A DNA stretch of 64,000 nt, from contig JBHLQH010000001.1 in the NCBI GenBank assembly GCA_048884965.1, positions 32,001 through 96,000 on the forward strand, read 5' to 3'. This document shows, in pieces, positions 22,928-44,800 of this stretch. Within the stretch, counting starts at the first letter, position 1. Each line of letters starts with the position of its first letter. Under the pieces are notes generated by a model that worked only from the letters and a program-made list of their open reading frames with translations, was not told the origin of the DNA and made no database searches. Made by a program: the position numbers and the translations under genes. The stretch is from Candidatus Thorarchaeota archaeon (GTDB lineage: Archaea > Asgardarchaeota > Thorarchaeia > Thorarchaeales > Thorarchaeaceae).

Positions 22928-24901
22928 CTAGAGAATATCAGAGAGCCAAAGACCAATTCTAAGCGCCAATAAGTCATCATCCAATGAGGCATAATTACCT
23001 CGAATTCCCCAATTATCAATGAAGAAATTGGTTCCAGTTATGACAAGTCTACCTCCTGCATTTCCTTCATAGCATGCAAGTACGGTATGTCCTGAGTAAC
23101 TTGCCAATCGGGTATAGCTTGCATTCGTTATCACAGAAGCACCCAGATAGTCGAAGGAATTTACTCCCGCCGTAATTGCGTGTGCATCTATTGAGGTTAC
23201 TTCGATTACGTTGCCTGTTGCTGGAATCGTGTTCGTAGTCATGGATGCTCCAGTCCACATCAGAAACTCGTTCAGTGATGATATATCCAAGGTTCGGTTG
23301 CTTAGTGCTGTGACAAAGATACCTCCACCATTCATGAAGTACTCTTCGTAAGCGTCTATCTCATCTGGAGTGAAGGGAATTGAGAATCTTGTTGGATTGG
23401 TATAATCAGTCTCATTTGTATCCCATGCGCATGGGTCCAAGAGAAATACTGCATCGAAATTAGACAAGTAGTCACTTGTAAGGTAACTTCTATCTCTAAT
23501 CTCTGTCACAGAAATATCGTTCTCAGAAAAATGAATGTAGAGTTCCTTGAACTGTCCATAGACAGTATCAATTGTCCAAGGAGTATGAGTGATATCAAAG
23601 GCGATTCGTGCTTCTGGACTTCGTGGAGATATATTGATTGCCAAAGAATCGCTTGAGTACTGATCAGCGAAGGTGATGGTTCCAATAATAAGATCTGATG
23701 CTGCAGGAACATGGATAGTGATAGGAACTAGTGCCGTTTGGTTTATCACCATACTTGTTGGCACCTCGACAATATCCTCTGAAATCCCTGATATGGAGAT
23801 ATCAAATATCGCAATGGTCGATGTTGTTATCTCTACCTCAAATGTATAGTTATCACCCAAGAATAGAGTTTCAAAATCCAGTGGTAGGGACTCAACATCG
23901 AGATATGTAAGACGTGGCAGATCATCGTGAATTGCTGCATCATCCAGAACGTTCTTTGATTCTTGTAGATTCGCCTTTCCAGCTCCCACAACATATTCGG
24001 GTTCATCAAGAGGTGTAGCTCCAGCCAGAAGAGCTGCTGTTATCGATCCCGGTGTGTATGAATAATCATTGGCAATGCAATGCTCAATGAGTTCTACAAC
24101 ATATGCTGCAATCTTGGGCGAAGCGAAGCTTGTACCGTAGTATATCGCACTTGTCGTTTCGACATAACCCTCTATTGCGATGTCTGGTTTCATGTACCTT
24201 TCCGCTGTTGGACCCCAACTTGAATAATAGGCTGCGACTCCGTTCTCATCCAAAGCTCCTACTGAGATTACCTTGGAGTAGACGCTTGGAGAGCTTATGC
24301 TTGTTCCTGGAAGGCCAGAATCGCCCTCATTGCCTGCCGCAGATACTACAATAACCCCTCTCGACCAAGCGTACTCAGCAACCGACTCAAGTGGGTCTCC
24401 TACAGTTGGCGAGGAACCAAGGCTAAGATTAATGATGCTGCAGTTTTGCTCAATCGCCCAATAGATTGCCGCGATCAGCGCCTCTGCAGTAGCGTATCCC
24501 GATGAGTCGATGACCTTTGCGACAACGATCCTTGCGCTATCACTATTTTGAACTAATGCACGAGTCACCATGGTGCCATGTCTGACATTATTCCCAGCTC
24601 CATCATCAGGATTCGAATCCGCAGTAGAAGTATCCGTGGTTTCATAGCCATACTGTGGAAGAATGAAACTCCGTTCAGCAACTACTCTCCCTGAAGTGGA
24701 GAAATCTTGGTCAAGTCCTGAATCAACAATTGCGACTCGAATGTTTCCATCAGTTGTAGGATTGATATTGAATGGAATGAGCTGGAAAATCGCAACTATT
24801 CCTGTTGAGATGACGATCAGTAAAATGATAATTACTGCAGCAATCTTTGTTCCAGTAGATTTAGTGGATTGCTCAGGTGGTGTATCCCAGTATAAGGCCA
24901 T
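22928..24901 (-). CDS. Membrane-anchored S8 subtilase with Ig-like and GATase-like (GldG/IFT52-type) C-terminal domains
   Basis: Triad IVDSG, RHGT, GTSFAS; oxyanion AAGNEG; N-terminal TM; C-terminal RIAFDITH...GGRLVITG. Confidence 0.9.
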   Translation of the reverse strand: MALYWDTPPEQSTKSTGTKIAAVIIILLIVISTGIVAIFQLIPFNINPTTDGNIRVAIVDSGLDQDFSTSGRVVAERSFILPQYGYETTDTSTADSNPDDGAGNNVRHGTMVTRALVQNSDSARIVVAKVIDSSGYATAEALIAAIYWAIEQNCSIINLSLGSSPTVGDPLESVAEYAWSRGVIVVSAAGNEGDSGLPGTSISSPSVYSKVISVGALDENGVAAYYSSWGPTAERYMKPDIAIEGYVETTSAIYYGTSFASPKIAAYVVELIEHCIANDYSYTPGSITAALLAGATPLDEPEYVVGAGKANLQESKNVLDDAAIHDDLPRLTYLDVESLPLDFETLFLGDNYTFEVEITTSTIAIFDISISGISEDIVEVPTSMVINQTALVPITIHVPAASDLIIGTITFADQYSSDSLAINISPRSPEARIAFDITHTPWTIDTVYGQFKELYIHFSENDISVTEIRDRSYLTSDYLSNFDAVFLLDPCAWDTNETDYTNPTRFSIPFTPDEIDAYEEYFMNGGGIFVTALSNRTLDISSLNEFLMWTGASMTTNTIPATGNVIEVTSIDAHAITAGVNSFDYLGASVITNASYTRLASYSGHTVLACYEGNAGGRLVITGTNFFIDNWGIRGNYASLDDDLLALRIGLWLSDIL

Positions 24902-25121
24902 GGTGATTCCTCAATGAATTGTCTATCCCGTCAAGGAGCCCAATCTAGGAAGATTGATGAACTTGTCGAACACGGAATTCGTACTCTTGAAGACTTATTA
25001 AGAAGCTTCAAAAGGTATTCCATCCATTCATCTAGTAGCTAGTGGTACGGAAGGGTTGATTACAAGATTATTTATCAATGCCAAATCATGCAAGCATAGT
25101 ATACTTTGTGAGGTACTGACA

Positions 25122-28073
25122 TTGTCTGAACAGCATTCCACCATTGTTGATGAATCAAAGATTATGAAATATCATGCGATGACTTCAGACGAAGTTCTTC
25201 AGGCTTTGTCAGTGAATCCTGAAATAGGTCTCACAGATGAAGAGATTCGGTCACGACAGGCGCAATACGGTCCTAATCAGATTCCGAAAATCAAAGGATC
25301 AATTTGGAAGATCTATATAGCTCCTATTCTTAACTGGCTGATTACAATCTACCTGCTCAGCTCTTTCGCCCTTGTTTTCCTAGCCCTCGCCTTTCCTACA
25401 GATCAATCACAGCTTGGTCAGGCGATATTCTGGCTGGCAATTGTTGCAGTGAATGCTATTGTCGCCATTTTCCAGCAGTATCGCGCACAGAAGAAATTAG
25501 AAGCTTTGGAAAAACTCTCTGCAGGTGATGCAAGAGTACTTCGAAATGGTGAGGAAACAACCATCGACCCTGTAGAAATCGTGCCTGGTGATGTCCTGAA
25601 ACTTGAGCAAGGGGATCGAATCCCTGCGGATGGCAGGATTATTACAAGTTCAAATCTATCAGCAAATGAAGCTTCTCTCACTGGTGAGAGTGTTCCGGTT
25701 GTCAAGAGTGCCTCATCACTTGCAGAAGATGGTGCTCCACTGACAGATATGCATAATATGCTCTTCTTTGGCACATACATTTCCACAGGAGTCGCAAAGG
25801 TTGTTGCCACTACTATTGGTGGATCAACCGAGATAGGGAAGATACAGGGCACCCTTGAGGAGCTAAATACTGGTGATATTCCCTTGAGAAAGAAGGTCAA
25901 TCTACTTGCAAAATATCTAGGGATTGCCGCTTTGGTTTTGATGTTTATTTCCATAACATGGGCAATTTTCTTTAGTCCATTGTTTACGGGTTCTGCAGGC
26001 ATTTCTGAATTCGACGCAATTATTGATACCATTGCAGCAGGGATAACAAAAGCAATGACCATCATGCCAATTAACATCCCTCTCCTAACAACAATTGTTC
26101 TCCTAACTGGCGTTCTGGCAATGGCAAAACGTGGTGTGATTATTCGTGATCTATCGGCAGTAGAAAGTCTAGGTCGGGTTAGTGTGATTTGCTCAGACAA
26201 GACTGGCACAATGACGAAGAATGAGATGATGGTTGAATATATCTGGGATACTGAGCGTCTTTACACTATTACTGGTGATGGATACGAACCTCGTGGGGAA
26301 ATATTGAAGCTGAAAGCAAATGCAAATAGTGAGGATTTGAGCTTGGAAAACGCTTCGCCCCTAGTTGGAGTCGAATCATATGATAATTTGAGGTTACTCC
26401 TTCTTTGTGGAGGGATCAATAATGATTCCGCACTTAGTGTAAAGGAGATTCCCGGTCAGGGCTTATCATATATCCCAATAGGTGATCCAACTGATGCAGC
26501 TCTTCTTACGTTATTCAGAAAGAGTGGTATTGATGAGGTAGAAGCAAAGGAGAAGTATCCCATAGTAATGGACTTTCCATTCGATTCTCAATTGAAGCGG
26601 ATGTCGAAAATCACTGGGTCTGAAACAAAGTATGTTCTATTCACTAAAGGCGCAACAGAGGTAGTGTTACCTCGTTGCACGCATTTCAATAATTCTGGAA
26701 AATCTGCAATCATAAACGATCCCATGATTAAGCAGATCACCACGCTCACTGAAGGTTTTGCATCCAAGGGATATCGAGTAATCTCACTTGCATATCGCTC
26801 GATGGATGATTTGCCATCAACTCATCATTTACGGGATGAGGTGGAGAAGAATCTTGTCTATCTAGGGTTTGCATGCATTGTTGACCCACCCAGAGATGGA
26901 GTCAAGGAAGCTGTGGATGAATGTCACAGTGCGGGAATTAATGTTATTATGATCACTGGTGATGCAGCTGCGACAGCGCAGACGATTGCGAAGAATTTGA
27001 ATATCTATGAGGAAAATTCTATTGCTGTCGAAGGTGGCGAAATTGGTACGCTTTCTGATGATGATTTCGCACGAGTCAATGTATTTGCCCGAGTCAATCC
27101 TGAGCACAAGCAGATAATCGTTGAACGATATCAGGATCAGCGAAAGGTTGTCGCAATGACAGGCGACGGCGTGAATGACGCTCTAGCTCTTGCAATGAGT
27201 GATGCAGGGATTGCGATGGGTATCACAGGGACCGATGTAGCGAAGGAAGCTGCTGATCTTGTAATCACAGATGATAGCTTCTCATCCATCGTCACTGGGG
27301 TTCATGAAGGTCGTGGTCTTTTCAACAAAATTAGAATGATGGTCTTCTTCTATATTGCCATCAACCTTTTCGAATCAGTGATTTTCTTTGGTGCACTTTT
27401 CCTCTTACCAGCAGGGTTCAATATGCTCACATCGTGGCAAAGTCTGCTTCTAGTAGCGACGACCCATTCTTTCCCCGGACTCGCGCTTGTCTTTGACAAA
27501 ACCTCACCAAGGGCAATGGAAGAGAAACCTCGTGATAGTGAGGATATAATAACGCGAAAACTCGCTAAGTTCATGGCAATTGGTGTTTTCCTAATGGTCA
27601 TTGGTGCTGCTATCGTTTACACTCTTGCTTTCAACGCTCAGCCTGGTGACCTCCTCTATGCTGTGCCTGAGAACCTCACTGGGTGGTATAATGAAGCATC
27701 AACTACTTTACCTGATGATTGGACCATTCAAACTGCAAAAGCTACGACTATGTTACTTACAATCATACTGATTTTTGAAAGCACTTTGGTGCTTATTATC
27801 AGAAGAATAAATCTGCCCTTCCACAAGTCAGTTTCTGAACCTGGTATAATCAGGTATGTTGTCTTGCTGGGTTTGATAGTCCTTGCATTCCTACTCTTAA
27901 TGTACGTCCCAGTGGCTCAGGAGATACTTGTAGGAGCCTTACCTGGATTTGAATTCTACTTCCTCCCCCTCACCACACTTGATTGGACGATTTGCATTCT
28001 CGCTACGCTTCCTGCGTTGATTGCACTTGAGGCATACAAAGCATCGTATCGAAGACGAGGAGAGCCACTATAG
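25122..28073 (+). CDS. P-type ATPase (P2A/SERCA-like scaffold, atypical transport site)
   Basis: TGES, DKTGT, KGA, DPPR, MITGD, TGDGVND motifs, about 10 TM; likely TTG start at 25122 with GAGGT RBS. Confidence 0.93.
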   Translation: MSEQHSTIVDESKIMKYHAMTSDEVLQALSVNPEIGLTDEEIRSRQAQYGPNQIPKIKGSIWKIYIAPILNWLITIYLLSSFALVFLALAFPTDQSQLGQAIFWLAIVAVNAIVAIFQQYRAQKKLEALEKLSAGDARVLRNGEETTIDPVEIVPGDVLKLEQGDRIPADGRIITSSNLSANEASLTGESVPVVKSASSLAEDGAPLTDMHNMLFFGTYISTGVAKVVATTIGGSTEIGKIQGTLEELNTGDIPLRKKVNLLAKYLGIAALVLMFISITWAIFFSPLFTGSAGISEFDAIIDTIAAGITKAMTIMPINIPLLTTIVLLTGVLAMAKRGVIIRDLSAVESLGRVSVICSDKTGTMTKNEMMVEYIWDTERLYTITGDGYEPRGEILKLKANANSEDLSLENASPLVGVESYDNLRLLLLCGGINNDSALSVKEIPGQGLSYIPIGDPTDAALLTLFRKSGIDEVEAKEKYPIVMDFPFDSQLKRMSKITGSETKYVLFTKGATEVVLPRCTHFNNSGKSAIINDPMIKQITTLTEGFASKGYRVISLAYRSMDDLPSTHHLRDEVEKNLVYLGFACIVDPPRDGVKEAVDECHSAGINVIMITGDAAATAQTIAKNLNIYEENSIAVEGGEIGTLSDDDFARVNVFARVNPEHKQIIVERYQDQRKVVAMTGDGVNDALALAMSDAGIAMGITGTDVAKEAADLVITDDSFSSIVTGVHEGRGLFNKIRMMVFFYIAINLFESVIFFGALFLLPAGFNMLTSWQSLLLVATTHSFPGLALVFDKTSPRAMEEKPRDSEDIITRKLAKFMAIGVFLMVIGAAIVYTLAFNAQPGDLLYAVPENLTGWYNEASTTLPDDWTIQTAKATTMLLTIILIFESTLVLIIRRINLPFHKSVSEPGIIRYVVLLGLIVLAFLLLMYVPVAQEILVGALPGFEFYFLPLTTLDWTICILATLPALIALEAYKASYRRRGEPL

Positions 28074-28090
28074 AGCATTTCAAGGGTAGT

Positions 28091-30046
28091 GTGATGATTC
28101 TGCAATTTGTTCTTCTAGATGATCCATTCTGGCCCCTTCTCATAGCATTGGCAATATTCCTACTTGTCGTTGGAAGCTTCATCAAGCTTCAGACTCGGAA
28201 ACGGGATGGAATGGTCGAGCAAATCAATCAACTACTGCTATCAAGACCATCTGTGTCCTTAACGGAGCTTATTCACCACCTTGACACAAAACGCATGGAC
28301 CGAAAAACTCTGACTGGGCTCATTCAAAGATCCAATGCCGCAATTATGAGTTTCTCGAAGACTTCAGTCATATCTTCAATTCTTCTGAGTGCACGATTAA
28401 AGGAGAATCTCGTGAACAATTCGATTATTTATGTTGACAAGGAAGCCAACCGCTGGGATGTTGCTCCAAATGAGATTGAACGAATTGTGGGGGATATCAG
28501 CCAGCGAGAGGGTCTTGATGTTCTTCTTACTAAAGATGGCGATTATCTACTAGTTCCGGATTTGAAAGATCGAATACGTGAGTCTCTGGAATTACAGGGG
28601 CGAGCTGACATTATCGCTGAATCTCAGAGATTGCGTGTTGATGTTGATGAGTTGGTTCAACTTGTTAGGAGTTGGGGTTGGTATGTTTGGCAATCTTCAG
28701 CAGGTTCCCTCTACTCAGTAAAATGGCTTCTTGATACTCTTGAAAGAAGTGTTGCACGAACCGGATACCTGGATCTTGATACAGAATCCACACGGTTAGA
28801 TTTGACGCCAAATGATATCATGAGGGTTGTTAGTCTCTACAAGTGGGATTTTGTAGAAGCATTTGACAATCGAATAATCCCTGCGCATCTACTTCAAGAG
28901 CAATTGCTATCACGTCTTGAACGATTCGGATCTTTGAACATAAATGAAGAAGCTAACAGATTAAAGATCTCTCCTGAGGGATTACAGCGAGTACTAAAGA
29001 AGCTGGGACTCACTCTTATTACCACGCATGATGGATCCGTTATGACACTTGAGCAGATTAGGCAGGAATTGCTTGATGATGCTGATCTTGCAGGTATTAT
29101 CTCTGCTGAGGAATCTGCTGGAAGACTTGGAATCGAGGAGGGCCTAGCGAGTAGAATTCTTGGGAATCATTCAGGTGTGAGAAAACTAAAGGACGGCCGA
29201 TATGCTTCCTATCGCGCTCTCAGGAGCTACATCTTGGAAGAAGTAAGGAAGACTGGAATCATCTATACAGATAAAATGGAGAAAGATTGGCTAGTGAATC
29301 GAATTGAGCTGGCTGCTCTTTTAAAACGATTTGGACTTAAGATCACTCTTACAAAGTCAGGGAACTACCTCTCGATATCGTGGCTTCGGAGAAGGTTGGG
29401 AGATTCATTACAGGTCGGAGAGGCACTCAATCCAAGTGAGCTGGCACAACGATACGATACTGAGATTAATGTCATCGAATCAATTGTCGCAACCATCCAG
29501 ACAGACACACTGATCGATGGAGAGGGAATGATGATATCTCGGAATGCTCTATACAATGAATTGGAATCCCAATTCCACAATATGGGAATTCTTCGTCCAT
29601 ATACTATTGCATCAGAGAGGGGATTAGACATTGCAGATATCCAGAAGACCCTCCAACCTCTTACATCTGCATCATTTAGGACCGAAGAAGATGCAATGGT
29701 AAGCAAGATTTGGCTTCTGAGGAAGATACAGGAAGCATTGAAGCAGAAAGGTATCTTTGACCTTACGACTCTGTGTGAAGGCATGCAACTGAATTATGAC
29801 ATAGTCCATTCTGAGATTGAATCTCGTTTGTCTGAAGACGACAGGCTACTGGAGAGCTGTGGTGTGATTGTTGCAGCAAAGTGGATCGCTATTCTAAAGA
29901 ATCTCGCAAAGGAGGAGGGCTCTATAGATGTGACAAAGTTTGCCGCCTCTCAAGACATTCCCAAAAAATCTGCACTCTGTGTTCTTCGAGCACTCCTACA
30001 GGGGGTATATCTTCCATCTAATGATAGCTATTTCACAAAGACCTAA
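28091..30046 (+). CDS. TM-anchored tandem winged-helix protein, UFL1/DDRGK1-like
   Basis: N-terminal TM, then about 11 units of about 57 aa (G.h.h...A..L.h....h...h + beta-hairpin T.DG.Yh); resembles the UFL1 N-terminal region as recalled. Confidence 0.7.
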   Translation: MMILQFVLLDDPFWPLLIALAIFLLVVGSFIKLQTRKRDGMVEQINQLLLSRPSVSLTELIHHLDTKRMDRKTLTGLIQRSNAAIMSFSKTSVISSILLSARLKENLVNNSIIYVDKEANRWDVAPNEIERIVGDISQREGLDVLLTKDGDYLLVPDLKDRIRESLELQGRADIIAESQRLRVDVDELVQLVRSWGWYVWQSSAGSLYSVKWLLDTLERSVARTGYLDLDTESTRLDLTPNDIMRVVSLYKWDFVEAFDNRIIPAHLLQEQLLSRLERFGSLNINEEANRLKISPEGLQRVLKKLGLTLITTHDGSVMTLEQIRQELLDDADLAGIISAEESAGRLGIEEGLASRILGNHSGVRKLKDGRYASYRALRSYILEEVRKTGIIYTDKMEKDWLVNRIELAALLKRFGLKITLTKSGNYLSISWLRRRLGDSLQVGEALNPSELAQRYDTEINVIESIVATIQTDTLIDGEGMMISRNALYNELESQFHNMGILRPYTIASERGLDIADIQKTLQPLTSASFRTEEDAMVSKIWLLRKIQEALKQKGIFDLTTLCEGMQLNYDIVHSEIESRLSEDDRLLESCGVIVAAKWIAILKNLAKEEGSIDVTKFAASQDIPKKSALCVLRALLQGVYLPSNDSYFTKT

Positions 30047-30136: not shown

Positions 30137-30991
30137 TTGGTTAGAACAACAACCTTCAAGATTCGTCAGATGAAAGAGAAAGGCAAAAAGATAGTCATGC
30201 TTACTGCTTATGATACTCCGACCGCTAAAATTCTAAGTGATGTAGGTGTAGACATCATCCTAGTTGGGGATTCAGTAGGCAACTCTTTGTTAGGATATGA
30301 AAGTACCGTCCCTGTTACTCTTGATGACATTATCCATCATTGTGCTGCTGTTTCAAGAGCAAAGCCAAGTAGTCTCATTGTGGGAGATATGCCTTTCATG
30401 AGCTACAAGGTAAGCGTCGAGCAGGCTCTGGCGAACTGCGCCATGATGTTGCAGAAAGGAGGTGCGGAAGCTGTCAAGATCGAAGGTGCAGGGCGAGTTG
30501 TTGATATTGTTTCAGCTGTTGTTGATTCAGGAATTCCTGTGATGGGGCATATCGGTCTTACACCTCAATCCATCTATGAACTAGGAGGATATCGTGTTCA
30601 AGGAAGAACAGCTGATGCAACTGAGAAGCTTGTCGAACAAGCTCTTGCCTTGCAAAATGCAGGTGCATTCTCTCTTGTGATAGAACTGGTTCCAACAGAA
30701 ACAGCAAAAGCAATCACAGAAGCTATTGATATTCCCACTATAGGCATCGGAGCCGGACCTCATTGTGATGGACAGGTGCTAGTTCTTTGGGATATGCTAG
30801 GACTTTTTGAGGACTTCAAGCCTAAGTTTCTCAAGAAATATGCGAATGTAGGAGAGGTCATCCGTACCGCTGTTGCGGATTATTCAAGTGAGGTACGAGA
30901 TGGGACTTTTCCTGCAAAGGAACACAGCTTTGAGATGTCAGAAGAAGAGTCTGGTCGTCTCTACGGACGCGTAAAGCCAAATAAAGAGTAG
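30137..30991 (+). CDS. panB: 3-methyl-2-oxobutanoate hydroxymethyltransferase
   Basis: MLTAYD, LVGDS, GDMPFMSY, KIEG, GHIGLTPQS, TIGIGAG; TTG start with GGAGAG RBS. Confidence 0.96.
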   Translation: MVRTTTFKIRQMKEKGKKIVMLTAYDTPTAKILSDVGVDIILVGDSVGNSLLGYESTVPVTLDDIIHHCAAVSRAKPSSLIVGDMPFMSYKVSVEQALANCAMMLQKGGAEAVKIEGAGRVVDIVSAVVDSGIPVMGHIGLTPQSIYELGGYRVQGRTADATEKLVEQALALQNAGAFSLVIELVPTETAKAITEAIDIPTIGIGAGPHCDGQVLVLWDMLGLFEDFKPKFLKKYANVGEVIRTAVADYSSEVRDGTFPAKEHSFEMSEEESGRLYGRVKPNKE

Positions 30992-32843: not shown

Positions 32844-35800
32844 CTACTCTTCCATACTTCTGTCCATCTGCTCTAGGACAGCATCAAGCTCGGCTCTGGT
32901 CATATCCTTCGCGCTCTCAAGAACTTCCTCGATCTGCTCCTTAGGAAGACCTAGCTTAGCAAGTCGCTCACCTACTTCTTGGAGTTCTTCAGCCGTCACC
33001 TTTCTTGTAGCATCTGCTTTCTCAGGTCTCTTCTCGGCAATCTCTTGAGCTCTCCTCGCCCTCTCTTGCTTGATGACCTCATTAAGGAACCCAGGTCTCT
33101 CACTAGGCTTCATTCTTGCAAGATCAGTTCGAAATGCTGCAATATCATCTTCGCCAAGTCCAGTAATTTCAGCAAGCTCCAAGAGAAGTGCTTCTGTTTC
33201 GGGTACATGGAATTCGATGGTCAACATTGGTATCTCATCGATTGGCTTAGAGATGTTGATTGCGTTGAGGCCCTCATTGATGATTCCTTGAATCATGAGG
33301 TTTCTCTCTCGAACTTCTGGTTTTTCAGGAACTTTCGCCTTTGAAAGCGACTTGATCATTCCATTCATGATTCGGATGAGTTTTGGCACACTGTACACCT
33401 TCACCCAGAGCAAGGCTCCAATGAGTGCCAAGATGATGCCAAAGCTACCGCCAAACATAACAATCGTCATGAGTGGATCCGCTGGTGGTGCAGTCACTAT
33501 AACTGTGAAAGCAAGAGTGAGTTGCTCGTAATTCTGACCATTTGAGGCATGAATTACAATTTCGAACTCTCCAGCAGATGGAACTATGAATCCTATGATG
33601 TACTGTCCAGCCGCCTCACCAGGCATCACAGAATAATCACTCTCACCTATGACACCTGTTGCTTGTGTTAGGTAGATATCTGCATCAGTTATTGGTAAGT
33701 TGTGGTCAAGATCCCAATACTCGATCACAATCTGTAGGTATTCTCCACTTAATGCAGTTGCAAAAGTGTTCCCTGACTGAGTTCTGAGATCAGTATCTAT
33801 AGGACGAATTATGATAGTGATTATTGTTGATACACGTGCATAGTTCTCCTTGTTGACTACGATAGTCGCATCGTACGATCCAAGTATTGCTGTGTTTGGT
33901 ATCTCGAAGGTATAGTTACCTGGATTCTCAGAATCCTCTACAAGCACTGCGCCTAGTGCCCATAGGACACTACCATCCGCTCCTGTCACAGGTCTGCCAT
34001 AGACTGTATCATTGATATAGACACTGGCAATCATGGTATCTCCGACAGGAACTTGAATGACATTCAGCACGATGATTTCCATTGTAATCGAACGTACTTG
34101 TAGGGTTGCAGATGTCGTCCTTGTGATGTAGTTGCTCTTTGTTGCTGTCACACGGATGTCGAATGAGGACGGAGCTACCTCAGTACTATCAAGTAGTACT
34201 TTGTAGATACCATTTCCTACCTCTTCCAACACACCAGAGCCGCCTGTCCATACGTACTGGAGAGTGGCATTCTCGATTGGCACCTCATTGTGGACGTCAT
34301 AGTAGCTAAAGAACATCCAGATGGACTGCTCATAGAAGATTGACAACGTTGCGTTCAGGGGTTGAACAGTTGTATCTATTCTCTGTACCTCGAATAGCAT
34401 AGAGAGAGTCGATGTTTCATAGCCCGCTTTGGTCGCAACTATGTACATGCTGAATGTTCCAGCGTACAAGTCTGAAGTAGTCAGTGTGATGTTGTATATG
34501 CCATTACCTTCCTCTACCAATGTTCCGTTGTAATCCGCATCACTGAATCTGAAGACCACTGATGCGCCAAGGATAGGTAGACTCAGGTCAATATTCGAAT
34601 AATTGACCCTAAGCACAACACTTTCACCGAATATAACCCTCAGAGTAGCTTCTCCAATTGGGTTTAGGTCGGTTTCCACAAGTCCAATGTCTAGACTAAA
34701 GTAGATACTTGCTTCAACGTGATTTGATTTGTTGGCTCGTACATATAGGGTGTAGACATTGATATTCACATCGGTTGTATCGATGAATGCTGAATAGTAT
34801 CCAGTCTGGGATGTTGCAGTCAATGTGCCGCTACGTTCACCATCACCAGGGTCCCATCGGTATTCGACTGTCGCCCCTGTAATCGGTCCGAACGCCAAGG
34901 ATTCGAAGTATACCGTGATATTGACAGATTGACCACTAACGACCGAGTATGCATAGATTTCATTCAAGCTTGAGAAATCTGTTTCTAGAACTGAAACAAC
35001 TACAGTAACTTGAATGATTCTTGCCTCGAAATTACTCTTGTTTGCGGTTATTGTGACAATATAGGTTCCAGCCTTAATAATTGAGGAATCAATTGATACG
35101 GTGTAGTTGAGCGCATATTCATCAAATGCGAATTCCATTCCTGAGATAGTAGCTTTGATATCAGCTCCAACAACCATACCACCGAGATCTAAGTTGTCAT
35201 AGTATACGGAGATGTCAATGGTTTCACTCCAATTTAGCTGAATCAATGACGTTTCTGTTGTGAGTTCCGTTCTTGTCTGTCGAAGAACTAGATCGACGAT
35301 CATTGATGCGGATGTATATCTAGTGCGTGTTGCAGTAATGTCATAGGAGTACGTTCCAGCAGGTTGTTGCCAGAGGAAGTAAGTAATATTATATTCTCCA
35401 CCACCCAGCTCTGCGATGGAATACGTACCACCTGGTGCGGTCGTGAATATGGTCGCGCCAGTAATGCCTGTATTATGATCGAGATCTTCGTAGGTGATTA
35501 TCACACTTACATTACTTCCTGCAACAACATTTCCTGCGAAGCTTGCAGAGATTGCAGTTTGAATCCTTCGAACCTCAAACTTCACAGAAGTAGTAGCAGA
35601 TGAATACCCTGTTTTAGTGACTGTAAAGGATACAATATAGTTGACTAGGTTTGTTACACTGGCGGTATAGAGGGTGACACTGAATCCATCCCCCGGAATC
35701 ACTGCCCACGACCATCCATATGGCCAATTGGTGCCAATCGATGCTCCTGTAATGTTGAGAGAATGGTCAGTATCAAAGTAGATAATTGTTACAGCAACTG

Positions 35801-38800
35801 TATCTCCTACTGGAACGACTGATGGATCAGGAGATGATGCAATAGCACTTGTACTGATTAGTCTAATAGTGATGTAGATAGTTGCCGTCTTTGTCAAGTA
35901 GAACGACTTGTTGAATGTGAACTGAGCACTGATTTTACCTGTGGTTGTCACCCACGAAGTATCCAAGGTAATGTTGAATATTCCATTTCCAAGAATTTCG
36001 TATGACCAATACCCGCCTGGCCACGTCGATGATATCGAAGCTCCGAGAATAATCTCCTCATGATCCAAATCATAAAATGTAATGTTCACTAAGGTCGAGT
36101 CTCCAATTGGGACCGTTCCTGGATCGGGAGCGTCTGCCAGTGTTTGAGTGAAGATGCTTCGGATCACAGCTCTGATAATTGTACCATTTGCATCTGGATA
36201 GAATGGTAGTCCTCCACTCCATGTGATGTCAATCTCGAAGTATAGTGCTCCAGTGGTCAAGAATGGAGTGCTATTGATAGTGAACACTATCTTGCCATCT
36301 TCTGGATTCGTGATCGATACTTGGAATGGACCTCCTGGAGTTGTGTTCAGGGGTGTGATATAGGCGTGTACATAGGTATCATTTGCAATACCTGCTCCGG
36401 TGGAGCTGTCTCTGTACCAGACTACGATGACAATGTCATCTCCGATAGGAATTTGGTCAGGAGGCTCATATGAGAGAACTGAACCTGCCCCTGTGATCGT
36501 CACGACGAATTCTATGGTTTGATTCTCGAAGTATGGCTTTCCATTGATCCAAATGAATGAAGCCTCAAATGCAAAATCACCGGTGGATCCAAGTGAGGTG
36601 GCATTGACTAGGACCTGATAAACTCCTGGTGAAGTCTGTGTAATCCACCAATCTACACTCCTATTCAGAGATACTTGCACACCTCCAAGGACTGTATCAT
36701 TGAATATTCCAGTGCTGCTGTCCAAGTCGATGTATCTGAACACAATCGTGATGTTGCTTGTGTAACTTGTTTGGGCGATCGGGTTAATGGTAAGCTGTGT
36801 ATTCCTAGCTCGGATATCCGCATCGATCACTAGGGATTGATCGTCATATCTGTAGGTAGGGTCTCCTGCAACCGATATAGTCAGATTGTATCTTCCGAAA
36901 ATACCGAATTTTGTTGTGTTGATGTGCAGATGATATGTTGCTCCCGAGATGTATTCAATCCAGTAGTAGCTCGAATCAACGGCGGTTCCGTTTACGGCAT
37001 CCAAGGAGAAGAATGCAACAGAGGTTGATATTGCCAGAAGTCCTGCATCTACATCGTAGTACTTTAGAATCACCGTCAAATTGTCACCAAATGGTGTTTC
37101 TTGAGGTGGTGTGTATGTCAATCTAGTCGCTCTTTCTCTTACTTCTACTTGCAGTGATCTTGTCTTGTTCTGATAGAAGGGCTCTCCAGACGATGAGATC
37201 TGTGCAACCAATGAGAATGTATCAACATCTCCAAGAGCACTAGAATCGACTTCGGCAATATACTCACCATTTCCGAGATCAGTAATCCAGTAGTTAGTGT
37301 TCAGAACTAAAGACTCTGCGGCTCCTGCACAGCTAAGTGTGATAGTACTACCAGTGATTCCTGAGGCGGTTATAGTATCTTCAAATGTGAAACTTATCGT
37401 TACATTATCTAGATATGGTGCAGCTCCCTCGACATCATAAGATAGTTGTGTTGGCCTTGCAGTTACTCTTCCAGTCACTGAACGGGGTCCAGCATCCGAC
37501 CAATAGTCTGGTGCATTGAAGGAAACCTGCATCGTATAATCAGTAAGCTGATTCAGAATGCTTGTGTCAAAGCTCACATTGTATTGTCCACTACCGATCT
37601 CAAGCACATTGACTGATGCAGTAGAAAGTCCGGATGGTGTAACGAAGGTAAGTACGATATACGAAATCATTCCCTCAAGTCCTGTGCCATCCGTTCCGTT
37701 ATCGATATCGAGAATTGTAACTATAAAGAAGGAAACCTCATCATAGTATGTAGAATCGGGTGAAGTAGTGCTTAGCTCAACCGATCGATATGCAACTTTC
37801 AGATTGATGCTACGTAGACTATCAGATAACCACCAATCTGTCGAATTGACCTTCAAGCTCAAAACATATGTTGCAGGTGCTCCAAGAGCACTAGTGTCAA
37901 TTTTTACTTCATAGACACCATTGCCCAAGTATGTAACCCAGTAGTTGGCGTCCTTTTCAAGTGTTTCAATGGAGGTTCCACATGAAAGATAGACATTGCC
38001 TGAGGCTATGGCAACTGGAATCGCTCCTTCAATATCGTTGTATGTTACATTGAAGAATGTGAAGTTGCCATAGGGTGTAGCTGGTATTGCCTCGTAATCA
38101 AGGGATGTGACTCGATCTCTAACGCTTCCGGTGATATTCCTTGAAAGTACGCTGTAGTATGGTGAAGATCCAGAGTGGTCGAATTTTATGGTTATTTTGT
38201 AAGAACTGACCATTCCAAGTATCGTTGTGTTGAAAGTGATCCTATACTGTCCGTCACTTCCTAGTACAAAGGATATGATTGGATTGTCACCGATACTAGG
38301 AATCACGAAGGTTGCAGAAATGTATGATTCATTATTGTTGATGAATTCTCCCGTCACACTATCCTGTAATGTTATGTAGAAGGTACTGTTCTCAAGATAT
38401 GCTGTTACATCAGGGAAGTCAATCTCCAGTGTAGCGACTTTCATGTTTATTGTAAGTATCGCAGATACTGCAGTCTGATTCTCGAAGAATGGACTTCCAC
38501 TCCACATAACCGTCATGTTGATACGGACTATTCCCAAGAGACCCGTTCCATCTGTGACGACATATACCTCATAGAAGCCGCCAACGGGAGTTGGATTCAC
38601 TTCGTAGGTGAGTCCATTCAGAACCGAAATAGTCAAACTGCCTCCAGTAATCAATTCGCTATTGTTGTCGAGATCGACATATTTCAGTAGAATCGTTGCA
38701 TTCTCGCCATAGAATACAGGATCCACTACGATCTGCGGAATGGCAGTATCACGCATTCGAACTGTGATGGAAATCAACTTGCTTACTTGATCTTCGTAGT

Positions 38801-41800
38801 ATGGTGCAAGACCTGGATCTGTCCAGTTGATTGTGATCCTGAAGTTGTAGGTAGCATAGGTATCTAGATAGCTAGTGTTCAACAGTAAGAAGAAGGTTGC
38901 ATATCCATTCACGTCATTTCCTTGAACGATTCGAAGAATGGCTATGTCTCCTGTATCTAGTCCGGGTTGAGTTACTGATACTACGGTAATGGCGGTGTTA
39001 ACTCCTATTTCACAATCCACTGGAACTCCTGCATCGAGGTCTCCCCAGTAGAATGTGACGTTGGCACGGTCTCCGTATGGTACGGGATCACTTGGATCCC
39101 ATACGAACTCGGTAGAAGTACCAGTAATCTGGAATCTGATTGAGATTGAGTGGTTCTGATAGTATGGGGCTCCAATGAAGGTCATATTGATCTGAACATT
39201 GGTGTAAGTGAAAGCGATGAATTGATCCGCATCCATCGTGACTACATAGGATCCTGCAGCAGCTCCTTCTGATACTAAGTAATTTGTTTGATTCACTGTG
39301 AGGAAGAGATTCTGTGTGCTGTTAGTTATAGGTGCATTTGCAAGATCTGTATCACTGAAGTAAAGCGTGATCGTCACCTGATCTGTGTATCCAACTGTTC
39401 CAACGGGGTCATATGAGAGTAAGGTATAACGCTCACGAACATACACTCGTACGTAGATCGAAGCATCCTGATAGTTTGGATACGTTCCGGCGTTCTGAGT
39501 TGAAAGCTGCACCCAATAGGTTCCTGGTTTGATGAATGCTGTTGTGTTGATACGTACTTCATAGAGATTTCCTCCTACTTCAGCGATGGACCAGAATCCT
39601 GTGAGACTTGCATTTACAACAATGATAGACGCACCGTTGATTGCAAGACTTGTGTCTAGGTCATAGTATGTCAGCTGGAATGTTGTATTTAGACCGAATC
39701 CTGTTCTTGCAGATGGCTCGGTGAGCTGCAATTCAGTCGAATGCTTCCTGATTGAAACTGTGATTTTGATTACTTTAGAGTCGTAGAATGGAGAGGTGTA
39801 GTCATAGCTTATGTTCAGGTAGACATAATGAGTGCCTATAGCAAGTGTGTTTTCTATGCTAACGCTATAGGTGTCAGATCCGGGTGTCCAAGTAACTGAA
39901 ATTCCCAGAAGATTGGGGTCAGAAATACTTACACCTCCGAATTGGATTCTGACAGCTCCTGTTGAGTTCATTACATCGGCTGCAGTTTCTCCATCTGTAA
40001 CATGTACTACTACTTCAACATCCTCTTCGAATGCTATATTCCCAACAGGATCGTATGTTGCAACAATAGCTCGGTAGAGAACTCGTAGTGTGAACTGAAC
40101 TTGTGCATTGTTCTCAAAACGCACGCCGGTGTAGGTCATCTGAGCTGTAATTGAATATGTTCCAGGCTTTAGGAAAGCAGTAGTATTCAGTACAACGTCA
40201 TATGTCCCATCACCATTATCTATGATAGTGTAATTACCTGTGAGAGTCAGTCCCGCACTCGTCAAAGTAAGAGTGTTCCCGAACATCGTTGTATGTTCAT
40301 CATCAATTAGATCATAGTAGGTAAATGTCATGGTGACATTTGAGCTGAAGTAGGTTGGTGATGCAGGGGTGTATTGTAATTGAGTGGGTCTTGTAGTTAT
40401 AGTCAAGGATACCAGTCTGGTCTGATTCTGGTAGAACGGAGCACCAATCCAAGTCACGTTCAACTGCAGATATACAGTACCAGTTGTACCAACAGATGAA
40501 GTATCTACAATCACCGTCCAAGTTCCTGAATCGTACTCAAGCCAATATGTCAACCCTGGATTGTTAAGTTGCACAAACAGCTGGGTCGAGTTCAGTATCT
40601 TTGTATTAGTGGGTGAATCAAAGTATGAAAATGAGAGTGTCGCATTCTCGTCAAACGCAGTGTTTTGAGGTGGAGTGACATCGACAAGAGTTGTTCTGTA
40701 GAGTATTGTCACTGTAAGGGAAAGTGTCTGATTCTCATTGTATGGTGCTGCAGTTGGAGTCCAATTCAAGTAGACCTTGATTGTATACGATCCATCTGCT
40801 CCAAACAACGAGGAATTCAGCTCGAAGCGATATAGTCCACCACCTACGGTAGTGATCTTGAAATCAGATGTATCGATTGAAGTTCCAAGAACAAAAGCAA
40901 AGGCGTATACATCGCTTGTATCATTCTCCACGCCCTCTGAGGCTTGTGTCATCTCATAGTATAAGGTGAAGTTGATGAAATCACCATAGTATACCGCCTG
41001 AGGAGCTATTGATACGCTTAGGTCCGTATCAGTACCTTGCAGCTCTACCGAGAATGTACGATACAAGCTCTCATATTTCGCGACTCCAGTCCAATTGAAG
41101 AAGACAGTAAAGGACATGGTGAATATTCCGCCAAATTGATCTGCTGGGATTTTAACAATGTAGTGTCCTGTTCCCAGTGCAAGGTTGTCACTAACAAAGA
41201 AGATAGCCCATCCAGTGGTCGAATTCGGGAATGTGTAGGAAACCGATACTGCAATTTCTTGAGTGACATTGGAAATGCCCGATCCAACAGTAATATCCTC
41301 GTAGAACAGATAAACTGAGATATTCGAACCAATGTCTGTTGGAACCACTGCCTCATCGAATGAGAGGAATGAATCATGTGTGATTACAACAATGACTATG
41401 ATCACATACGCATCCTCATATCCAGATTTGGTGAAATTAATTCGAATTGGATACGAGCCTAATACTGTAGAGTCAATTGTTTCTAGCGTGAATTCATAGA
41501 CTCCGGTAACAGATGATGTATTTGAAATGGTCAAGGTCGAATTGGATAGGATGGTATCTGCGTTGATTCCAACACTGTGATCTACATCAGAATATTGAAC
41601 TGTGAACACTATGTTTGTCCCAAGAGGTACATTAAATCGATACCCTGAGGCTATGGCCTCTGTATCTGTAACTCTGATTCTGAACCTTACTGTCGTAGAA
41701 GCGTCCTCATAGTTCGTTCTTTGCATTGTGAGGATGACAATATTGTCACCAAGTGATAGGCTTGTTGTGACCATTGTAATCCTGTAGTAGCCTTCACTAA

Positions 41801-44800
41801 TCCACATCACTGTGAAGTCAGTATCCTCGACGAGATCTGTTCCATTGAGAAGGATTGTCGAAGCATTTACCAGTACTCCACCTAGGTCTCTGTCCCTGAA
41901 TTGCGCATAGAAGATAAGAGTGTCACCTGAGGGTACGGGATCCGGAGTGGGAGCATAGGACTCAGTGTATCTCTCTCTGATATCAATGGTAACACTTCCA
42001 GCAGAATTTGAGTAGAATTTTGTAGGTCCTGAACCCGAAGTAGTAACACTGATTGTTCTTGTGTAAGTGCCAATGGACCAATCATCAGTGGTGAGATTCA
42101 CGGAAAAGACTCCACCGGCATAGATCCAGTTTGCTGATGTGAACACTTGTCCTCCAATGACGATCTGAGTGATATTGGTCTCACCAATAATCAGTGATGC
42201 ATTATTCAGATCTTGTATCGTAATCGAGATTGCTGTATTGTCAGAATAGGGTGTTGCTGGTGGTCTTGTAGCTAGTACTGATAATCCATGGCTTACAACC
42301 TGTATCAATACTGTGGAGGCACTGTTCTGATAGTACTTGTATCCTAAGGATGATGTTGTTAATGAAAGGGAATAGAAGGCGGTGCCGATGCTCCACTCTG
42401 AAGTGTCAAGTGCACAGATGTATGTACCTGCATCGAATGTCCAATTGGCAGATGTGAAGGTCTGACCTGCAATGATCACTTGAGATACATTGCCTTCATT
42501 GATGGACAGACTAGTATTGTCAAGGTCAATCAAAGAGAATGAAATATTTGTCTTCCAACTCCATGGAGTAGCAGATGGGGTTGTTACAGTTATGCCTATG
42601 AGATGTGCTCGAATCTCGATTGTTACACTGCTAGTTCGATCATTGTACATCTTGATTGGTGCTATTGCAGTGGTAACCGCAACTGCATACGAACCTGTAC
42701 CTATCACCCAATCACTGGTATCTACAACAACTGTGAAGACTCCTGCAGAGTAGCTCCATGATGATGAAGTGAATACATACCCTGCGACCACTATCTGTGT
42801 GATGTTTGCTTCATTGACGATGAATGATTCATTATCCAGATCGATGATTGTGATATCTAGAGTCGTCTTCCAGCTCCAAGGAGTTGCTGCAGGACGGTCG
42901 ACTGATACCGATAGGATATGCCTTCGAACTTGAATTGTTAATGTACTAACACCATTGAAATAATACTTAATGGGTGTTGAGCTTGTTGTTACACTGACTT
43001 GTAGTACTGTGGTTCCTATATTCCAAGAAGAGGAATCTACAATCACATAGAATGTCCCATCTGAATATACCCATTCTGAGGAAGTGTAGATGACACCTCC
43101 TATGGTGATCTGCGTGATATTCGCCTGCGAAATATCTAATGTGGAGTTATCGCCATCAATCAATGTGATTGAAACATTGGTCTTCCAACTCCATGGTGTT
43201 GCAGATGAAGTAGTTGCTGAAACTACCATGGAGTGTGCCTTGATCGTAATTAGAACACTTCCTGATCTATCATTATAGTATCGTGCCGGTGTATCCAAGC
43301 AGTTTACTGATACCACATAGGAATTGCTAGAAATGGTCCATGATGAAGTATCCACGAAGAAGCTGAAAACGCCGTCATTGTATGTCCAATCCGCAGACGT
43401 GAAGACTTGCCCGTCCACAATGATTTCAGTTACATTGCTAGGATTAACCGTCAAGGTTGAATTATCAAGATCTGTCAACGAAACTGTAACATTCGTCTTC
43501 CATCCCCAAGGAGTCTGTCCAACGGGATTTGCAGTGATACCAATGTCATGTGATCGAATCACGATTTGTGCAGCACCCAAGCCATCATCGAAATACTTGG
43601 ACAAACCTGAGCCTGCGCTTGTGACAGTTATTGTGACCGAGTAGGTTCCCACATCCCAGCTTCGCGTGTCCATCCAAAATGCTATGGATGCTACACCTGT
43701 ACTGTCATCGTAAGTCCAGTTAGCACTTGCATATAGATAGGTTCCGTAAATTGAGCTTATCTCCACTGTGCTAATGTTTCCTTGTGATATGATTATAGAT
43801 GAATTGTCTGTGTCAACAAAAGAAATGTTCATCCAAGTTCTCCAACCCCATGGAGTTTCACTGGGTGGAATGGATGAAACTCGAGTATGATGTGCTCTTA
43901 CTGTGACAGTGAGTTCAAGATTCTTTTCTTGATGCCCAGTTGCAGATGCTTGAATGAGAATCGTGTATTCACCAGGAGTCACACTTTCTGTGTTGAAGGT
44001 TACTTGCCAGATATCAAGAGATGAATTATATGTTGGACCACTCTGAGTTCCCACAACTGTTTGAGCTGGCCAGTTGGAAGTGATTGAGATGTCTGGTGCT
44101 GTATTATCAATAGGTCTGTTTGCAACAAAATCGAAGAGATCGATGCTATAGCTAAATGCGCTACTATGAGAGGCATCAATCCTGGCTTTGATAACTCCTG
44201 AGCCATCTATGAAGTGACTTGGATTTGTAGTTCTCCAAGTAAGTGTTGTATCGATTATTGGATGGTAGTCGCTAATGATTTCGACCCATGATGTAGATGT
44301 TACATTGTAGGCGTAGACAGAGCCAGACGTGATGGTCGTACTGAATTTTCCTTCAATCTTGAAAGTAAGTGTACTGATATCACCTACAGCAAAGTTGTAT
44401 GGGTCTATATCAGTGGTAAGAGTAACAGAGATTTGATTTCCCACACTAGAAACAACTGTATAGACATTATTTGATGTGAACGTATTGGTTTCATCTGGTG
44501 ATGCTGGACTTCCAGGACTTGCAGAGATTCCATCAGGATTCATTGCGATAGTGTCTTCATACGCGATATAGATTGTCTTTGAGTTTCCCCACGCAATTTC
44601 ATAGTCTGTGGTTGGAGTCTGTAGATTCTTGGGTGAGTATAGGGTTGTCTTTTCCTGAATCTCAATAGTAATACCTGAAGTTTCTGCGTAATCGTAGTAT
44701 GATTTGGTGGCATTGATATTAACTGAATATCCTCCGATCACCGCGAGTGAAGTATCCACATATCCTGCGTACCATCCATTTCCAGCATATCCCATATTAT

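Follow-up and report, generated by a model that had tools for sequence, protein, structure and literature searches.

A subtilase, an atypical P-type ATPase and a winged-helix array in conserved order in one Thorarchaeota family

Do three neighbouring genes for membrane proteins, each with its best structural counterpart in the eukaryotic endoplasmic reticulum (ER) or Golgi, make up a functional unit in an archaeon, or have they been inherited side by side? This question is raised by a locus at positions 22928-30046 of a 64,000-nucleotide stretch (the window, G000:C1:32001-96000, whose own numbering is used throughout) from a Thorarchaeota genome of 4.09 Mb that is 95.7% complete. The locus encodes an S8-family subtilase of 657 residues on the minus strand (22928-24901) and, diverging from it on the plus strand, a P2-like P-type ATPase of 983 residues (25122-28073) followed by a single-pass membrane protein made of tandem winged helices (hereafter the WH protein; 28094-30046). 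For all three proteins, the relatives that carry names are from Thorarchaeota. A first-pass annotation of this DNA had recognized three consecutive membrane proteins, and this was confirmed by the N-terminal helix of the subtilase, the domain set of the ATPase and the transmembrane helix of the WH protein. It had gone on to propose that they may form a module for membrane quality control or homeostasis in which the WH protein is a subunit or scaffold of the ATPase. Our analysis points elsewhere. The explanation that we favour, with a probability of roughly 55%, is that the locus is an inherited gene order in one Thorarchaeota family that includes a dispensable winged-helix scaffold, sitting on the cytoplasmic side of the membrane and independent of UFM1, and not a proven three-part machine.

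Conservation and loss of genes at the locus

Our comparison set consisted of 400 genomes of the phylum, 85 of them from a single family (f1). The WH gene is present in 24 of the 400 genomes, all of them in f1 and distributed over 10 of its genera, and the WH family as a whole amounts to 14 close clusters; a set of 1.84 billion proteins contains about 17 that represent it at full length. In the approximately 20 genomes whose ATPase and WH genes share a contig, the WH gene comes immediately after the ATPase gene on the same strand, with a spacing that varies from a 14-bp overlap to a gap of about 42 bp (17-20 bp in the window), and the whole arrangement, with the subtilase gene diverging from the ATPase and WH genes, is repeated in every WH-bearing related genome. 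It is thus not the product of chance. These same observations also speak for the main rival to our reading, in which the ATPase and the WH protein form a functional pair and the WH protein is an accessory, regulatory or localising subunit of the pump, or tethers it to a cytoplasmic structure; phospholamban, FXYD proteins and beta subunits, which accompany P2 ATPases as single-pass proteins, would then offer a parallel in principle. The pairing is further favoured by the fact that the WH gene was never found apart from the ATPase gene, the other WH-array proteins that we retrieved being members of different families. We nevertheless consider such a partnership rather unlikely, because the two genes differ greatly in distribution: orthologues of the ATPase (at least 59% identity) are found in 72 of the 85 f1 genomes and its homologues in 310 of the 400 genomes across the phylum. 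Co-occurrence of the PINI-type ATPases with the WH protein, which had been suggested as a check on the proposed partnership, is thus confined to part of f1.

The gene that follows the WH gene, panB (ketopantoate hydroxymethyltransferase, 30137-30991, plus strand; Pfam 1e-114), provides a calibration for the synteny. It comes after the WH gene in all 16 loci that extend far enough, directly so in 15 of them, and in 11 f1 loci that have no WH gene it comes after the ATPase gene instead, usually 60-150 bp on, with a small open reading frame (ORF) in between in one locus. In other words, panB is found after the WH gene, or directly after the ATPase gene, in all loci of the family that extend far enough, and its linkage to the ATPase is no looser than that of the WH gene. 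Order in this region is thus preserved even among genes that have no functional relationship. Conserved adjacency alone therefore says little about function at this phylogenetic depth, a negative result that matters in its own right. A hidden Markov model of the WH family, applied to 18 ATPase loci that lack the WH gene, returned no match at E <= 10, and hence no remnant of the gene. In a tree built on the C-terminal 420 columns of the ATPase alignment, WH-bearing genomes are intermingled with genomes that lack the gene; parsimony requires 7 changes, and well-supported branches make at least 2 of these unavoidable. In two pairs of genomes from the same genus, the first member has the WH gene and the second does not (G382 and G384; G320 and G321), and the end branches leading to the ATPases of G382 and G384 measure about 0.06. 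The WH gene has thus been lost repeatedly beside an ATPase that is nearly unchanged. The transmembrane helix of the WH protein, the sole part that could touch the pump inside the membrane, is in addition its least conserved segment (conservation 0.46). Together, the losses and the poorly conserved helix argue against an obligate subunit, and the earlier suggestion that the WH protein is a subunit or scaffold of the ATPase is left without support by its absence from sister genomes with a near-identical ATPase and by the equal linkage of panB.

The subtilase has yet another distribution. Its gene adjoins the ATPase gene in 10 of the 11 f1 loci without a WH gene and lies more than 120 kb away in the remaining one (G386, genus g14), and the two genes are not adjacent in 7 loci from six other families; the pairing of subtilase and ATPase is limited to one family. 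Synteny across Asgard genomes, another check that had been proposed, therefore gave a divided answer: the ATPase and WH genes are adjacent wherever the WH gene exists, but the subtilase and ATPase genes are paired in this family only. These three phyletic ranges, the break in g14 and the absence of the pairing outside the family, and the repeated loss of the WH gene all speak against the idea that the subtilase, the ATPase and the WH protein act as a single archaeal module for membrane quality control or homeostasis that would be a forerunner of ER functions. So do the predicted topologies, which would place the subtilase outside the cell and the winged-helix array in the cytoplasm, the failure to find UFM1, UFC1 or UfSP in the genome (see below), and the fact that the S1P-like and DDRGK/UFL1-like proteins of other Asgard families are not encoded next to the ATPase. 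Such a module would account for the ER/Golgi counterparts of the three proteins, and most genera of the family retain the divergent arrangement of subtilase and ATPase together with conserved spacer motifs; set against the points above, this still makes the module the least probable of the readings considered here. The trio is better described as an old, Asgard-wide pump, a protease paired with the pump in this family only, and an often-lost gene that is found in part of the family.

Several observations sit uneasily with an explanation based on inherited gene order. No more than a few tens of bp ever separate the WH gene from the ATPase stop codon, even though WH orthologues diverge to about 30% identity, and a real functional pair would predict the same. 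Motifs in the divergent spacer are common to distant genera, so that the subtilase and the ATPase could share regulation. The best structural counterparts of all three proteins belong to the eukaryotic ER and Golgi, a striking coincidence if the proteins are functionally unrelated. Lastly, the WH protein has an overall isoelectric point (pI) of 5.5, which does not favour general RNA binding and so does not help the scaffold function that we propose.

The winged-helix array and its UFL1-like relatives

The WH protein scores 31.0 bits with the Pfam family E3_UFM1_ligase (PF09743; cut-off 23.2), the match being divided between two stretches, and beyond this family Pfam returned weak helix-turn-helix (HTH) or B5 matches alone. 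A profile of 13 orthologues, compared with the sequences of the PDB, gave only two matches at E <= 10, both of them UFL1 constructs (8b9x, 5.7e-5; 8c0d). The predicted structure (predicted local distance difference test, pLDDT, 86) places a helix at residues 14-51 ahead of ten winged helices, each some 55 residues long, and an incomplete last one; in Foldseek searches, ranks 1 to 5 were all taken by UFL1 chains (2.7e-12 to 3.9e-8), followed by SelB, and searches of the ESM Atlas agree with the UFL1-like assignment. The DDRGK model (PF09756), on the other hand, gave no match to the WH protein at E <= 0.1, nor did PF23659 and PF25870, the C-terminal families with which eukaryotic UFL1 is annotated in the Atlas. 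Of the UFL1/DDRGK1 likeness claimed in the first-pass annotation, the UFL1-like array and the membrane anchor are thus upheld and the family match to DDRGK is not.

The membrane anchor of the WH protein (residues 14-33; 28130-28189) is visible in the sequence, the model and the orthologues. In the model, the helix is followed by the basic cluster KLQTRKR and runs directly into the first winged helix. An N-terminal hydrophobic stretch succeeded by a basic run is found in 25 of 25 orthologues (down to 30% identity), which, by the positive-inside rule, implies an N-out/C-in topology. Inserted in this way, the protein would hold a cytoplasmic rod of about 600 residues, made of UFL1-type winged helices, at the membrane. 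Conservation is highest in the second to fourth repeats, the third being the best conserved of all (0.68) and carrying an aromatic wing, W-G-W-Y-V-W (28673-28690), of which W195, G196, Y198 and W200 are invariant (W-G-x-Y-x-W). The array is acidic overall, with basic repeats at positions 1, 5, 7 and 11.

The closest known system is the human UFL1-DDRGK1 scaffold (PDB 8b9x, 8c0d, 8qfc, 8ohd), which likewise consists of tandem winged helices held at the membrane by one N-terminal transmembrane helix. In humans this helix comes from DDRGK1, whereas the Thorarchaeota protein is a single polypeptide of about 10-11 repeats instead of two proteins. It resembles DDRGK1 in having an N-terminal anchor and, if the predicted topology is correct, a cytoplasmic winged-helix part. 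It differs from UFL1 in that its N-terminus is the anchor itself, and hence it has no free N-terminal helix; in UFL1, the free N-terminal helix binds the E2 enzyme UFC1. A six-frame search of the Thorarchaeota genome for Ufm1, UFC1 and UfSP (PF03671, PF08694 and PF07910/Peptidase_C78) gave no match at E <= 1, and DDRGK gave only sub-threshold matches elsewhere in the genome; this search was sequence-based and could have missed relatives recognizable by structure alone, such as the Ufm1-like proteins found by structure in nine Asgard clades (PMC12962969). UFL1 and DDRGK1 are said to have originated in Asgard archaea and to predate UFM1 (PMC10183829). For the role of such proteins without UFM1, the WH family offers a membrane-anchored, single-chain version that lends itself to tests of ribosome or partner binding. 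Most likely, the WH protein would serve as a scaffold on which a large cytoplasmic partner docks independently of UFM1, with the ribosome or another ribonucleoprotein as the lead suggested by homology. A bolder version of this idea makes the WH protein the archaeal single-chain equivalent of DDRGK1-UFL1, docking ribosomes or another large complex without UFM1 and working with the pump and the S1P-like protease in membrane-protein homeostasis. If this were true, the locus would be a surviving piece of a pre-ER membrane toolkit; we regard it as a long shot.

The structure cluster nearest to the WH protein in the Atlas consists of Asgard proteins of about 800 residues of the DDRGK/UFL1/PCI type, which are probably the Asgard UFL1/DDRGK1 relatives described in PMC10183829. 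They have UFL1-like winged-helix repeats in common with the WH protein and are likewise confined to Asgard archaea. The example that we read, which is encoded in G272, is a soluble protein with zinc ribbons at its N-terminus, then 4-5 winged helices, and a beta-rich domain at its C-terminus, whereas the WH protein is membrane-anchored. Matches to PF09756 above the cut-off were obtained in families f22 (57 of 135 genomes), f17 and f21 (L062, that is G272:C59, and L063-L065); in f1 they were limited to two small ORFs. In the genomes where the positions of both genes are listed (G170, G174 and G175), the gene of the DDRGK type lies on a different contig from the ATPase gene.

Since winged helices are classic nucleic-acid binders, the WH protein could also be a membrane-tethered nucleic-acid-binding regulator, possibly freed by proteolysis in the manner of membrane-bound transcription factors. 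The best structural match after UFL1, the C-terminal array of SelB (PDB 1lva, 2uwm), is an RNA-binding module that is similarly elongated and made of tandem winged helices, four of the WH repeats are basic, and the gene for a Site-1-like protease is adjacent. SelB, however, is a soluble GTPase that ends in four such repeats and binds the selenocysteine insertion sequence (SECIS) RNA; the match of its array to the WH model is far weaker than that of UFL1 (1e-5 compared with 3e-12), and the WH profile gives no sequence match to SelB. The array as a whole is acidic, and the only hint of a DNA-binding regulator in Pfam was a weak DeoR-type HTH match that, at 16.8 bits, stayed below its cut-off of 21. 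In this context we also considered whether the subtilase might act on the WH protein by regulated intramembrane proteolysis, and rejected the idea, as the extracytoplasmic tail of the WH protein is only some 13 residues long, leaving nothing for an outside protease to trim, and the subtilase persists in genomes without the WH gene. We therefore think it highly doubtful that the WH protein is a regulator of this kind.

Winged-helix repeats similar to those of the WH protein occur more widely. P0159, P0160, P0167 and P0175 were rejected as members of the WH family; they have similar repeats and belong to other families, and the contigs of P0159 and P0160, the two whose context was read, contain no ATPase gene. 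Such repeats are also found in unrelated architectures with PKD, NosD, laminin-G, TPR or STAND NTPase domains. Four further proteins of 1068-3539 residues (P0155, P0164, P0170 and P0176) have up to 12 stretches that match the WH-array profile. The presence of these stretches in large or fused proteins identifies the repeat as a widely reused module.

The subtilase and the pump

The first-pass annotation had likened the subtilase to Site-1 protease (S1P), and a structure match over the whole ectodomain bears this out. The protein (22928-24901) consists of an N-terminal transmembrane anchor, a catalytic domain (residues 52-320; 23942-24748, minus strand) recognized by sequence and structure matches to subtilisins, an Ig-like beta-sandwich (residues 321-430) and a GATase1/GIFT-like alpha/beta domain (residues 431-657), the last two (22931-23941, minus strand) being delimited by the secondary structure of the model and its fit to S1P. 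Pfam recognizes the subtilase domain (Peptidase_S8, 1e-31) and a weak ThuA-like signal in the C-terminal part. D60, H108 and S258, the Asp-His-Ser triad, and N191, the Asn of the oxyanion hole, are invariant in 13 orthologues. The AlphaFold model built from these 13 orthologues (pLDDT 80, predicted TM-score 0.76) has its N-terminal helix at residues 16-41, and the catalytic domain begins about 10 residues past the transmembrane helix, leaving the protein without a prodomain.

Human S1P is the top Foldseek match of this model, at 7.7e-33 and with an alignment of about 745 columns, compared with only 434 columns for the next protein of another kind. Residues 52-657 can be superposed on residues 210-874 of human S1P with a Z-score of 38.7 and a root-mean-square deviation of 3.3 A over 543 aligned residues, at 22% identity (VIA-align), and the catalytic domain alone gives a Z-score of about 31 over 235 residues with subtilisins. 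In the Atlas, the nearest shapes are eukaryotic S1P clusters (TM-scores of 0.72 and 0.62), the best prokaryotic subtilase cluster reaching 0.54, and the Ig-like and GATase part is matched by DUF4350/GIFT modules and by eukaryotic clusters of the third and fourth MBTPS1 domains. Eukaryotic S1P (MBTPS1/SKI-1; PDB 8uw8, 9csd) thus has the subtilase, Ig-like and GATase-like domains in the identical order and relative orientation. It differs in that its anchor is C-terminal, whereas the Thorarchaeota protein has an N-terminal anchor and no prodomain, and by sequence the catalytic domain of the latter is nearer to subtilisin BPN'/E, its closest PDB entries; S1P is not among its 60 best PDB sequence matches. 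The Pfam families MBTPS1_3rd and MBTPS1_4th (PF23094, PF23090) were likewise not matched by the protein or by its 12 aligned orthologues. Sequence searches had led us to read the subtilase as not S1P-like, and for the overall architecture this was overturned by the fold searches. It is possible that the S1P-type architecture was assembled independently, since the module of Ig-like and GATase/GIFT domains is also found in bacteria, fused to other enzymes.

Homologues of the subtilase reach beyond the range indicated by a word-based search. A full-length orthologue is present in G311, which belongs to a different family of the same order. There (L061:3875-5974, G311:C48), the neighbour of the subtilase gene is not an ATPase gene; it encodes a protein of 699 residues with a weak match to PMT_2 (GT-C glycosyltransferase). 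A protein of 1213 residues from another Asgard family, P0262 (G002; L060:1682-5323, G002:C1, minus strand), can be aligned with the window subtilase over all three domains at 26% identity. Its layout is fully in the style of S1P: a signal or anchor, a pro-region, the S8 domain, an Ig-like domain, a GIFT/GATase-like domain (Pfam 1e-9), further beta-rich sequence and a C-terminal transmembrane helix that ends in a basic tail, QRRTRVR.

A eukaryotic origin has been proposed for S1P-type subtilases (PMC6713707). In the literature that we searched, we found no report of an S1P-like ectodomain in Asgard archaea, none that links MBTPS1 with Asgard archaea and no detailed description of Thorarchaeota subtilases; the match of the whole ectodomain to S1P makes an archaeal origin testable by phylogeny. 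The window protein itself would be an active, outward-facing, N-terminally anchored subtilase, which most likely trims surface or secreted proteins.

The ATPase (25122-28073) was described at the outset as an atypical P-type pump, and so it is. It has the Pfam cation-ATPase N-terminal, E1-E2, hydrolase and C-terminal domains, and its best PDB sequence match is the Listeria Ca2+-ATPase LMCA1 (1e-119), followed by SPCA1 (2e-103) and then SERCA. It misses every equivalog cut-off of NCBIfam (PMR1-type, 460 against 798; SERCA-type, 420 against 703), passing only the generic P-type model. It shares with the P2A Ca2+-ATPases (LMCA1, SPCA/PMR1 and SERCA) the full set of P-type domains, the layout of 10 transmembrane helices and the core motifs, of which DKTGT (the phosphorylation motif, 26196-26210), TGES and GDGVND are all present and invariant. 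What sets it apart is the transport site. Aligned with LMCA1, the fourth transmembrane helix (M4) reads P-I-N-I-P (26067-26081) where Ca2+ pumps have PE(G/A)L, so that PINIP takes the place of PEGLP, the M4 Glu of PEGL is missing and the position of SERCA E309 is occupied by Ile. M6 reads TTHSFP, with the His of T-T-H (27459-27467) in place of the cation-site Asp (SERCA D800 and its LMCA1 counterpart), and the Asn and Glu of M5 are retained. PINIP and the M6 His are invariant in the Thorarchaeota family of ATPases, and homologues with 42-48% identity from six other Asgard families have kept PIN[IL][PV] (PITIP in one locus), as well as the M6 His wherever the M6 motif could be read. This conservation across Asgard families suggests that the transport site was deliberately altered and has not decayed. 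The protein would accordingly be an Asgard-wide P2-like pump with a rebuilt ion site, formed by Asn in M4, Asn and Glu in M5 and His in M6, that probably exports a cation other than Ca2+. The PINIP/His pumps are a family spread across the Asgard phylum without an assigned substrate. In family f22 (L055:7220-9400, L056:3-2237), the PINIP ATPase is preceded by a tandem paralogous P-type ATPase with PINLP and the M6 His.

Spacers, transcription and gene neighbourhood

The ORFs and the divergent spacer were found as the first-pass annotation had placed them. The ATPase ORF opens at 25056, and the start used in the orthologues and in the database call of 983 residues is the TTG at 25122, so that the spacer between the subtilase and ATPase genes extends from 24902 to 25121. 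For the WH gene, which ends at 30046, the start codon is either the GTG at 28091 or the ATG at 28094 (the database call of 650 residues, P0004), and the gap between the ATPase and WH genes is therefore 17 bp counted from the GTG, as first reported, or 20 bp from the ATG. This gap (28074-28093) contains no T-run and has no room for a promoter; given this and the tight spacing, the ATPase and WH genes are likely to be co-transcribed. The operon proposed earlier is thus plausible for these two genes, whose spacing is also short in relatives, and the subtilase gene is not part of the probable transcript. The spacer upstream of panB is AT-rich and contains TATA-like boxes.

An alignment of four orthologous divergent spacers revealed conserved short motifs. 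GAACTTGTCGAA (24959-24970, plus strand) is present as an exact GAACYTGTCGRA at the same place on three related contigs, L002-L004. CTTCAAAAGG (25006-25015, plus strand) is exact on the same three contigs and also in the spacers of L040 and L057, which belong to genomes of genus g11 without a WH gene. A third block, GATTACAAG..ATTTATCAATG (25058-25080, plus strand), includes, some 45 bp before the ATPase start, a TATA-like box for which we infer a promoter role. These blocks have been kept between genomes whose proteins share just 44-67% identity, and the motifs may be promoter or regulator sites.

The surrounding genes, as identified by Pfam, are those for a melibiase, two TPR proteins, an uncharacterised protein, a PHP protein and an MFS protein, followed by the subtilase gene and, divergently, by the ATPase, WH and panB genes; most of this block recurs on L002-L004. 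The inherited order, from melibiase, TPR, PHP, MFS and subtilase on one side to ATPase, WH where present, and panB on the other, would thus contain one probable two-gene transcript, that of the ATPase and the WH protein. Downstream of panB, on the minus strand, lie genes for a metallo-beta-lactamase and an SCP2 protein, and three genes downstream of the cluster an ORF of 4603 residues occupies positions 32844-46655 of the window, also on the minus strand.

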